From Escherichia coli (GTDB lineage: Bacteria; Pseudomonadota; Gammaproteobacteria; Enterobacterales; Enterobacteriaceae): 64,000 nucleotides of DNA. How positions within the stretch are numbered: the stretch's first letter is position 1; each line of letters starts with the position of its first letter. Made by a program: the position numbers. Shown piece after piece: positions 33,001 to 36,000 of the stretch. The stretch is taken from NCBI RefSeq assembly GCF_003991155.1, contig NZ_CP031293.1. One strand, written 5' to 3'.

Positions 33001-36000
33001 ACGATGGCGCTGAAAAAATATCGCCCACAGGCCGACGATACCCGGCTGCTCGCCGAGTTGTCAGCGATAGCCAGCACCCTGAAATCAGCGTCACTTTCCG
33101 ACATCGAGATGCGTGGTTTCACCTTTGATCAAAAACGCCAGACGCTCCACCTTCAGTTGCGGGCCGCGAACTTTGCCAGTTTCGACAAACTGCGTAGCGC
33201 ACTGGCGGCAGATTATGTTGTGCAACAGGACGCGTTACAGAAAGAGGGTGATGCGGTTTCCGGCGGCGTAACGTTGCGGAGGAAATAACATGTTACGCGA
33301 TAAATTTATTCACTATTTTCAGCAATGGCGTGAACGCCAGTTAAGCCGTGGCGAACACTGGCTGACACAACACCTGGCGGGGCGTTCTCCGCGTGAAAAG
33401 GGCATGTTACTGGCAGCGGTGGTGTTCCTGTTTAGCGTCGGATATTACGTCCTCATCTGGCAGCCGTTGAGCGAACGGATAGAACAACAGGAGACGATGT
33501 TGCAGCAGCTCGTGGCGATGAACGCGCGACTGAAGAGCACTGCGCCGGATATTGTTGCGGCGCGAAAATCCGGCACGACAACGCCAGCACAGGTATCGCG
33601 GGTCATCAGCGACAGCGCTTCCGCGCACTCGGTGGTCATCAAACGGATTGCCGAGCGTGGGGAGAATATTCAAGTCTGGATAGAACCTGTGGTGTTTAAT
33701 GACCTGCAGAACTGGTTAAAGGCACTGGATGAAAAATATGCGCTGCGGGTGATACAAATTGATGTCAGCGCAGGTGAGAAGCCTGGGATGGTGAATGTGC
33801 AGCGACTGGAATTTGGGCGGGGGTAGGTATTGCCATTTCCTTAACCCCACCTGATAACCCTTAGCCCAATGGTGAGTGCGGAACTGTCAAACCCGCTCAC
33901 CGGGCTGAGTTTCGATGTAGCAAGAATTATCTCCCTCCAGACCACCACGGAATATTCGGTAACACTGAAGGAACCTGTTTTTCACCATGTAGCCTTCGTT
34001 AATCGACACCTTTCTAAGACTGTAAAGATGCTTAAGTGTTTTGACACATTATGATTATTAATAGTTGTAATAAATCATTGAGTAACAATTGATAGGTCAA
34101 AACATATAGGATAATTCTTATGTGATCTGTATTTTGTGTAGCCTGGAAATTAGTAAAATTACTGGAGATAATCAGAAAGGGAATTTCAAATAAGCATAAT
34201 AATTTCCAGGGAAACTATTCGTCGATTTTAAGAAATGTCTGCTCAGGTATATCTACTGAGGGATAATGCTGGCTGTAACGCTGGTTAAAATAAATGCACA
34301 AAATAATCAAGGCGTATACTTTAATTGACGAAAATAATTACTCACGGAATTATTAATGGGACTTAAATAACACCGTTTAAATGTGATGTAAATCACAAAT
34401 GTGACTGTAAAGAGGGGGCTGTAGATATAAATAAGAAGTACATGAGTGAATTTTAAATAGGGAAATAGTTTCTCGGTGAACAATTTATTGGTAATCAATC
34501 GCGTGCGTTCTGGTTTGAAACAGATTGCAGGTATTGTTACGCATAAAATCCATAGGGGGTATTATAATCAAGTAGTTAACAGTAACAACAAAAATAATTT
34601 CCTGAGAAATTAACTCTACATTCTAAAACGGCCAGTTTTCTGAAGTTACCAGAAGACCGAATACGTTCATGCCTGAAGAATGGATTAGAAGAAACGAGAC
34701 GGAAATAGATCTATTTATCCCTGCGGAAATAATTTCTGCTGAAATTTTTTGCGGCTATTAAAAAGGTCAAACCGTCTGAGTAAATTTTATCCAGTTACAA
34801 ATAAGCATTACCTCCAGTGTATTGGTAGCTGTTAAGCCAAGGGCGGTAGCGTACCTGAAGAGATTAGGATCACATCATCAAATGGCAAGAAGTGGATTTG
34901 AAGTCCAGAAAGTCACCGTAGAGGCATTATTTCTACGAGAAATACGAACACGCTTTGGTAAGTTCCGTCTGGGATATTTGTGGGCGATTCTCGAACCCTC
35001 TGCGCATTTGCTGATACTGTTGGGTATTTTTGGTTACATTATGCACCGCACGATGCCAGACATCTCATTCCCGGTGTTTTTACTTAATGGCCTGATTCCC
35101 TTTTTTATCTTTAGCAGTATCAGCAATCGTTCTGTAGGTGCTATTGAAGCGAATCAGGGGCTGTTTAATTATCGACCAGTAAAACCCATCGATACGATCA
35201 TTGCGCGTGCATTGCTTGAGACACTGATTTACGTTGCTGTTTATATATTGCTTATGCTTATCGTCTGGATGGCAGGCGAATATTTCGAAATAACAAACTT
35301 TTTACAACTTGTGCTTACCTGGAGTTTGTTAATCATTCTTTCATGTGGCGTTGGCTTAATATTCATGGTCGTTGGTAAAACCTTCCCTGAAATGCAAAAG
35401 GTCCTGCCGATACTGCTTAAGCCGCTGTATTTCATCTCCTGCATCATGTTCCCTCTGCACTCAATTCCAAAGCAATACTGGTCGTATCTACTCTGGAACC
35501 CATTAGTGCATGTCGTGGAGTTAAGCCGCGAGGCAGTTATGCCTGGCTATATCAGCGAAGGTGTGAGTCTGAACTACCTGGCAATGTTCACTCTGGTCAC
35601 CCTGTTCATCGGTCTGGCGTTATACCGAACGCGTGAAGAGGCAATGCTGACATCATGATTAAGATTGAAAATTTGACGAAGTCATATCGCACGCCAACGG
35701 GTCGACACTATGTGTTTAAGGATTTAAATATTGAAATCCCTTCAGGAAAAAGTGTTGCCTTTATTGGTCGCAACGGAGCGGGTAAATCAACGTTACTGAG
35801 AATGATTGGTGGTATTGACCGCCCCGACAGTGGAAAGATCATCACCAATAAAACAATATCATGGCCAGTCGGCCTCGCCGGTGGATTTCAGGGAAGTTTA
35901 ACTGGACGCGAGAACGTAAAATTTGTTGCGCGGTTATACGCAAAGCAAGAAGAACTGAAAGAGAAAATTGAGTTTGTCGAAGAATTTGCCGAACTGGGCA

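Follow-up and report, generated by a model that had tools for sequence, protein, structure and literature searches.

The short motif that precedes kpsM in this locus raises the question of whether it is a genuine ops/JUMPstart element and, if so, whether the capsule genes downstream depend on RfaH for their expression. We analysed a stretch of 64,000 nt from Escherichia coli (contig NZ_CP031293.1 of assembly GCF_003991155.1), hereafter referred to as the window, in which the glc genes, sslE, pppA and the gspS2/gspC-M type II secretion operon are followed by a group 2 capsule cluster; the rfaH gene is not part of these 64 kb. In this cluster, kpsMT and kpsFEDUCS flank a serotype-specific region 2, the arrangement that defines a group 2 kps cluster, and region 1 (kpsS, C, U, D, E and F) is located on the opposite strand, convergent with regions 3 and 2. 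On the + strand, the region 3 gene kpsM (34882–35658) encodes an ABC-2 permease of 258 aa, assigned by Pfam (ABC2_membrane) and by the RefSeq annotation of near-identical genomes, and its best NCBIfam match was KpsM (NF050053), with 189.6 bits, under the cut-off of 300. KpsS was likewise a best NCBIfam match under its curated cut-off, while KpsU (kdsB-like), KpsD, KpsE and KpsF were annotated. The ABC ATPase gene kpsT (35655–36323, +, 222 aa, supported by the ORF, Pfam and RefSeq) starts within the kpsM stop (ATGA).

Region 2 (36345–40357, +), the presumed cargo of RfaH-modified RNA polymerase, comprises three genes. They encode a GalE-family 4-epimerase (36345–37364, +; Pfam, and NCBIfam galE TIGR01179 with 435.6 bits), a 760-aa protein that joins a GT2-like domain at its N terminus to a Capsule_synth (KpsC/KpsS-like) domain at its C terminus (37449–39731, +; Pfam), for which sequence searches returned no PDB relative and no NCBIfam family, and a hexapeptide O-acetyltransferase (39728–40357, +; Pfam). 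This region, carried by 131 of 5426 complete E. coli genomes, is 100% identical to that of ECONIH2, Rb-3 and about 20 other complete genomes, while strain Combat2C1 was 98.5% identical to the window over 28 kb. From its gene content the locus would be of a K14-like type, and the literature examined gave no explicit link between a K type and this locus.

The earlier note had placed an ops motif at 34842–34853, about 30 bp before kpsM, and we found the 12-nt element GGCGGTAGCGTA at exactly this location, on the + strand, which is the non-template strand and the same strand as kpsM (local sequence ...CCAGTGTATTGGTAGCTGTTAAGCCAAGGGCGGTAGCGTACCTGAAGAGATTAGGATCACATCATCAAATGGCA...). The ops core GGCGGTAG occupies positions 34842–34849, T11 corresponds to 34852 and A12 to 34853; the 3' end of the element is separated from the kpsM ATG (34882) by 28 nt, and the distance from the start of ops to the ATG is 40 nt. 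A covariance-model search with Rfam RF01707 identified a complete 39-nt JUMPstart (CAGTGTATTGGTAGCTGTTAAGCCAAGGGCGGTAGCGTA) at 34815–34853 on the + strand, of which ops forms the 3' end, with a score of 58.5 bits (gathering score 35) and with model positions 1–38 of 38 matched. The E-value was 9e-12 when 8 kb were searched and 7e-11 for the whole window, where this was the sole RF01707 match at the gathering threshold. The element lies in the sense orientation in the kpsM leader, within an intergenic region of 1055 nt, a setting that fits the leader of a surface-polysaccharide operon. It is this full-length match, and not the 8-nt core by itself, that decides the identity of the element as ops, and the assignment to ops/JUMPstart proposed from inspection of the sequence was upheld by it, by the conservation seen in E. 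coli and Pantoea kps leaders and by the published descriptions.

To evaluate conservation, we aligned the intergenic region of 11 E. coli genomes with at least six region 2 types (K1 neuD-type, CFT073 K2, two CDP-glycerol, GT4, divergent galE and others). The segment 34807–34874 was the longest nearly invariant and best-conserved block of the 11 leaders, even in the divergent Esc8 leader, and within JUMPstart only two positions were variable. Position 34840 was either A or G, preserving a stem pair as U-A or U-G, and ops position 10 was G except in CFT073 and the ST131 strain 4993, which carry A. Of 5426 complete E. coli genomes, 1707 carry the leader together with kpsMT, and 1681 carry a 106-nt segment with the element at its centre, always with at least 90% identity and in 1596 of these 1681 with at least 80% coverage. 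We also scanned one representative genome per species, covering approximately 100,000 species, with a JUMPstart pattern, which yielded 102 DNA stretches (104 matches) from Enterobacterales, Aeromonas, Vibrio and a few others. Among these, Escherichia whittamii carries an identical element with identical spacing and a kpsM orthologue (98% amino-acid identity) directly downstream, and in Pantoea sp. alder81, P. rodasii and Pantoea sp. A4, with kpsM orthologues of 86, 84 and 74% amino-acid identity directly downstream, an intact element was found 33–36 nt before the kpsM ATG amid unrelated flanks. Retention of the element in such unrelated surroundings is the pattern that would be expected of a functional element. 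The motif is thus conserved in the orthologous kps leaders of E. coli, E. whittamii and Pantoea, a comparison that the earlier note had named as a check on its proposal. Taken together, the JUMPstart/ops before kpsM is real, conserved and previously described.

The bases that matter for RfaH recruitment according to mutagenesis of ops, namely C3, G4, G5, T6, A7, G8 and T11 (PMC5995543), were all found in the window. On the non-template strand, ops forms a hairpin closed by C3:G8 that presents G5 and T6 to RfaH (Zuber et al., PMC5995543), and T11 is required for pausing at ops (PMC5995543). The TG dinucleotide at the pause (T11-G12) is common to the validated K-12 targets (PMC5995543), while position 12 is A in the window (GCGTA), which departs from this consensus. 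The same base was present in each of the 11 E. coli kps leaders that we aligned and in that of E. whittamii; the three Pantoea kps leaders have G12, as do 81 of the 104 JUMPstart matches across genomes (78%). In vitro, a G12C substitution abolished the pause at U11 while RfaH recruitment was retained (PMC5995543). The ops of CFT073, read from its genome as GGCGGTAGCATA, likewise has A12, and since the kps ops of that strain shows an RfaH ChIP signal, A12 is compatible with RfaH recruitment in vivo. A12 is therefore not disqualifying for membership in the ops family.

We then located the element with respect to the transcription start. The promoter PR3 has been placed 741 bp before the initiation codon of kpsM in K5, and ops 28 bp upstream of kpsM (review PMC8960920), the latter figure being identical to the spacing in the window. 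The intergenic region between yghD (gspM) and kpsM measures 1055 nt in the window and 1057 nt in a K5 strain with kfiA annotated, and the two align at 96%; since the K5 strain shares the short-form leader and the published distance is 741 bp, the PR3 start is predicted at about 34141–34143. Transferring the K5 distance in this way gives a putative kpsM 5' leader of approximately 740 nt (34142–34881, +), near the 3' end of which ops would be located. Two −10 hexamer candidates, TATTTT at 34130–34135 and GATAAT at 34110–34115, were found for PR3, neither of which could be assigned with confidence. In E. coli, kpsM has an AGGA 12 nt upstream of its ATG and no Shine-Dalgarno sequence at a distance of 5–10 nt, and none was recognisable before kpsM in the Pantoea leaders either. 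We infer only that this absence would fit RfaH-aided recruitment of the ribosome, an idea put forward in PMC5995543. A 278-aa ORF with a TTG start at 34822, running across JUMPstart, was discarded as an artefact of calling ORFs mechanically; the annotation places the start at the ATG at 34882.

We considered whether the motif before kpsM might be a chance match or an inactive relic, as the 8-nt core by itself is no rarer than chance: it occurred three times in the 64-kb window, compared with 1.28 expected, and at least three occurrences were reached in 12 of 100 shuffles, a count that was not significant and led us to drop the core as stand-alone evidence. The 11-mer GGCGGTAGNNT was present as a single copy in the window, with 0.24 expected and at least one copy in 22 of 100 shuffles. 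However, both additional cores lack T11 and JUMPstart surroundings, and they lie inside a 499-aa ORF (9412, GGCGGTAGGACG) or antisense to kpsS (41534, GGCGGTAGCGAG), whereas the full 39-nt model gave an E-value of 9e-12, the element is kept where its flanks diverge and its location is exactly as published. A chance match or relic is thus extremely improbable, and this explanation is already effectively refuted. A different possibility concerns the 5' half of JUMPstart (34821–34840, +), which in the Rfam structure line forms a stem-loop (TTGGT / AGCTGTTAA / GCCAA) and which might, as an RNA hairpin or as the site of another factor, have a role besides or instead of RfaH loading. Rfam treats the element as a structured RNA, the 27 nt before ops are conserved equally to ops in kps leaders, and the contacts of RfaH are confined to the loop bases of ops (PMC5995543). 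In the RF01707 structure, the window stem consists of five pairs (U-A, U-A, G-C, G-C and U-G). In a set of 60 distinct JUMPstart elements, drawn from other genomes in the species-representative scan, the innermost pair was standard in all 60 and of four types (T-G in 36, A-T in 14, G-C in eight and T-A in two), while the three middle pairs were invariant, the search pattern having fixed their 3' bases, and the outermost pair was standard in just 40 of 60. Nevertheless, the isolated 86-nt RNA around the element folded with a stability no better than that of shuffled sequences (z +0.68), and the Rfam stem was missing from its minimum-free-energy structure, so that thermodynamics alone fails to support an RNA structure that the covariation count does support; in addition, the literature examined links neither a factor nor a phenotype specifically to the 5' half. 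We therefore regard a separate role of the 5' half as unlikely, and we are similarly doubtful of the broader proposal that A12 makes this a tuned ops variant with a weaker pause at U11 or that the covarying stem-loop is separately functional. If A12 did weaken that pause, kps would be loaded with RfaH below saturation, and capsule expression would be unusually sensitive to the RfaH concentration or to the elongation rate.

The remaining alternative accepts a functional ops and holds that region 2 is transcribed mainly from one or more internal promoters of its own, with RfaH read-through being modulatory. It bears directly on the earlier note, in which the dependence of region 2 on read-through was argued from the lack of a promoter-like gap between kpsT and the epimerase gene. 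We confirmed the gap itself, as the kpsT stop at 36323 and the epimerase ATG at 36345 are separated by 21 nt that contain a Shine-Dalgarno-like GAGGGTG, but as an argument it proved weak, since a promoter can sit inside a gene and since promoter-like hexamers occur in the AT-rich gap of 84 nt at 37365–37448. Promoter-like sites were found at 37422–37450 and 37338–37365, with many more inside region 2, although their number did not exceed the chance rate (32 found compared with 34.7 expected). Similarly, terminator-like sites on the + strand were weak and as frequent as expected (four found, 3.5 expected), with no convincing intrinsic terminator among them. Further against internal promoters, the epimerase gene begins just 21 nt past kpsT, and in CFT073 lacking RfaH the occupancy of RNA polymerase declines almost to background as the ends of the predicted RfaH-regulated transcription units are approached (PMC9765446). 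A region 2 driven chiefly from within is improbable.

Dependence of region 2 on RfaH read-through from the upstream ops is, in turn, a reasonable extrapolation from K5, K1 and K2 strains, since all five genes from kpsM to the end of the AT-rich region 2 lie close together on one strand; kpsM and kpsT overlap, as do the last two region 2 genes. The GC content falls from 53% in yghD to 31–39% in the leader, is 42–46% in kpsMT, 28–35% in region 2 and 24% in the convergent intergenic region, and reaches 43–55% in region 1. Values such as those of region 2 are typical of H-NS-bound, RfaH-dependent DNA, and on low-GC DNA it is the pausing stimulated by H-NS, together with Rho termination, that makes RfaH necessary (PMC9765446). 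Read-through by RfaH has been described as essential for region 2 expression (review PMC8960920). In CFT073, where the kps locus is covered by H-NS/StpA, ChIP-seq showed that RfaH joins RNA polymerase from the kps ops onward (Hustmyer et al., PMC9765446), and the RfaH-dependent travelling ratio for wzx, kps and rfa was 0.1–0.34 or lower (PMC9765446). In K15, regions 2 and 3 have been described as forming one polycistronic mRNA, with JUMPstart upstream of region 3 (PMC7387560). The suggestion that the locus follows the known antitermination arrangement of kps region 3 is therefore in line with both the review and the occupancy study (PMC8960920 and PMC9765446).

Based on these observations, we propose that RNA polymerase would initiate at PR3 and transcribe the leader. 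At ops, the non-template GGCGGTAG would form a small C3:G8 hairpin exposing G5 and T6, and the polymerase would pause around U11. RfaH could then bind both the ops DNA and the polymerase, its C-terminal domain would refold, and the protein would stay on the elongation complex. So modified, the polymerase would shut out NusG and Rho and withstand the pausing that H-NS/StpA filaments cause on AT-rich DNA, while RfaH would probably bring the ribosome to kpsM, which has no canonical Shine-Dalgarno sequence. The result would be a single transcript of kpsM, kpsT and the three region 2 genes, extending to about 40357. The sequence, strand and position of the element, its family, its conservation and the operon layout were computed here, while the molecular mechanism and the RfaH dependence in K5, K1 and K2 strains come from the literature. 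Taken together, we assign a probability of roughly 0.93 to the reading that ops lies within a complete JUMPstart near the 3' end of an approximately 740-nt kpsM leader, in a group 2 capsule cluster, and acts by this RfaH mechanism.

On this reading, the element would account for full-length transcription of a capsule operon of about 5.5 kb that is AT-rich and horizontally acquired, and it identifies kpsMT together with region 2 as a single predicted RfaH-dependent unit, which is useful for annotation; it also predicts that rfaH or ops mutations would abolish this capsule. There is nothing new in the kps ops itself, which was already known, having been mapped in 1997 and with genome-wide RfaH occupancy at kps reported in 2022. 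What is added here is confirmation for one more region 2 type, which 131 of 5426 complete E. coli genomes carry, together with the retention of the element before kpsM in Pantoea.

Compared with known systems, the locus is closest in organisation to those of K5 and K1. The region 3 leader of the K5/K1 group 2 clusters has the same 28-nt spacing to the kpsM ATG (Stevens et al. 1997, as summarised in PMC8960920), and the layout is also the same, with yghD/gspM, a long leader, kpsMT and region 2 in succession, convergent with kpsFEDUCS. The short form of the leader is shared as well, measuring 1055 nt in the window, 1057 nt in the K5 strain and 1055–1058 nt in K1 strains. The cargo alone differs, consisting here of the epimerase, the GT2 plus Capsule_synth transferase and the O-acetyltransferase in place of kfiABCD or neuDBACES, and the gap between kpsT and region 2, which is 21 nt in the window, extends to about 1 kb with a transposase remnant in the K5 strain. 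The uropathogenic strain CFT073 (K2) has an orthologous leader and kpsMT with approximately 95% nucleotide identity; its leader contains an extra segment of 118 nt at the position of window 34591/34592, and its JUMPstart is the same as that of the window save for two bases (G at 34840 and A at ops position 10), with A12 being shared.

Outside the capsule loci, the JUMPstart between galF and the O185 O-antigen cluster (GAGTGTGTTGGTAGCTGTTAAGCCAAGGGCGGTAGCGTG) differs from the kps element of the window at three of 39 positions. The rfb and waa JUMPstart elements have the same stem-loop plus GGGCGGTAGCGT as the kps element, although they usually end in TG, whereas the E. coli kps element ends in TA. 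The hlyCABD and F tra operons follow the same logic of RfaH recruitment, with the ops core on the non-template strand of the leader. In hly, about 600 nt separate ops from the first start codon (PMC9765446), in contrast to the 40 nt between the start of ops and the ATG in the window. For wzx, kps and rfa, the distance from ops to the translation start is 40–67 nt (PMC9765446).

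Comparison of kpsM 5′ leaders among E. coli loci (L002, L003, L006, L007 and L010, comparison DNA from other genomes) revealed a 118-nt insertion/deletion polymorphism at window position 34591/34592. The extra segment was present in CFT073, ST131 strain 4993, Esc8, AVS0533 and E10, and was absent from the window and from K1, K5 and B strains. Because a direct repeat resembling AAATAATTTCnnGnGAAATTA borders the segment, the sequence suggests that the indel arose by deletion or duplication between repeats. The same leader carries a conserved hairpin, CUGCGGAAAUAAUUUCUGCUGAAAUUUUUUGCGG, at 34721–34754 (plus strand), approximately 90 nt 5′ of the ops element, and the 81-nt region of this hairpin gave a folding energy of −19.1 kcal/mol (z −2.25). 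A shorter form of it, comprising 34723–34739 and a T run, was flagged as terminator-like by the terminator scan; in CFT073-type leaders this T run is broken up (TTGTTT).

In E. coli AVS0533 (L006, locus positions 1 to ~700), the place of yghD is taken by an ISEcp1 transposase gene, which also substitutes for the 5′ portion of the kps intergenic sequence; the replaced stretch includes the position expected for the region 3 promoter, PR3. JUMPstart and kpsMT are kept in this strain, so that the outward promoter of ISEcp1 may drive regions 3 and 2 there.

Within the ops element, position 12 (window 34853) is A in every E. coli and E. whittamii kps leader examined, while the Pantoea kps leaders carry G, as do 81 of the 104 JUMPstart matches obtained across genomes. 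Exact JUMPstart matches were also located on short contigs from assemblies that carry Gram-positive labels, namely Arthrobacter (L029, L068, L073 and L087), Bacillus (L097) and Firmicutes metagenome-assembled genomes (L042, L049 and L107); these Gram-positive-labelled matches most likely represent enterobacterial contamination or mis-binning and not true occurrences. A 278-aa ORF with a TTG start (34822–35658) that runs through JUMPstart was set aside as a mechanical ORF call, the annotated 258-aa KpsM beginning at the ATG at 34882.

The final gene of region 2 is separated from kpsS by a convergent intergenic region of 481 nt with a GC content of about 24% (40358–40838), in which no intrinsic terminator was predicted on either strand. 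As judged from this arrangement, polymerase modified by RfaH could continue into kpsS in the antisense direction. On that antisense path, an ops-like core, GGCGGTAGCGAG, which does not have T11, is located at 41534.

Elsewhere in the window, two Rfam matches above the gathering score were obtained on the minus strand, namely the C0719 sRNA at 14829–15050 (297 bits) and the IS102 RNA at 61333–61569 (74 bits). From approximately 50100 onward, the window ends on the right in a CP4-like island that carries cbtA/yeeU toxin–antitoxin, antirestriction and Ag43 genes.

Of 5426 complete genomes, 131 carry region 2 (36345–40357), among them ST131 JJ1886 at 96%; the region encodes an epimerase, a 760-aa protein combining GT2 and KpsC/KpsS-like (Capsule_synth) parts, and a hexapeptide O-acetyltransferase. 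Searches with the 760-aa protein sequence returned no NCBIfam family and no sequence relative in the PDB. The window has an intact GalE-family epimerase gene (36345–37364, 339 aa); the annotation of Combat2C1 (L001, 16519–17537) gives this gene a frameshift and that of Esc8 (L003, 2937 onward) an internal stop, and on the basis of these two annotated lesions the gene is recurrently pseudogenised in related loci. A capsule made of an O-acetylated disaccharide that contains Kdo, such as K14, would be consistent with the gene content of region 2.
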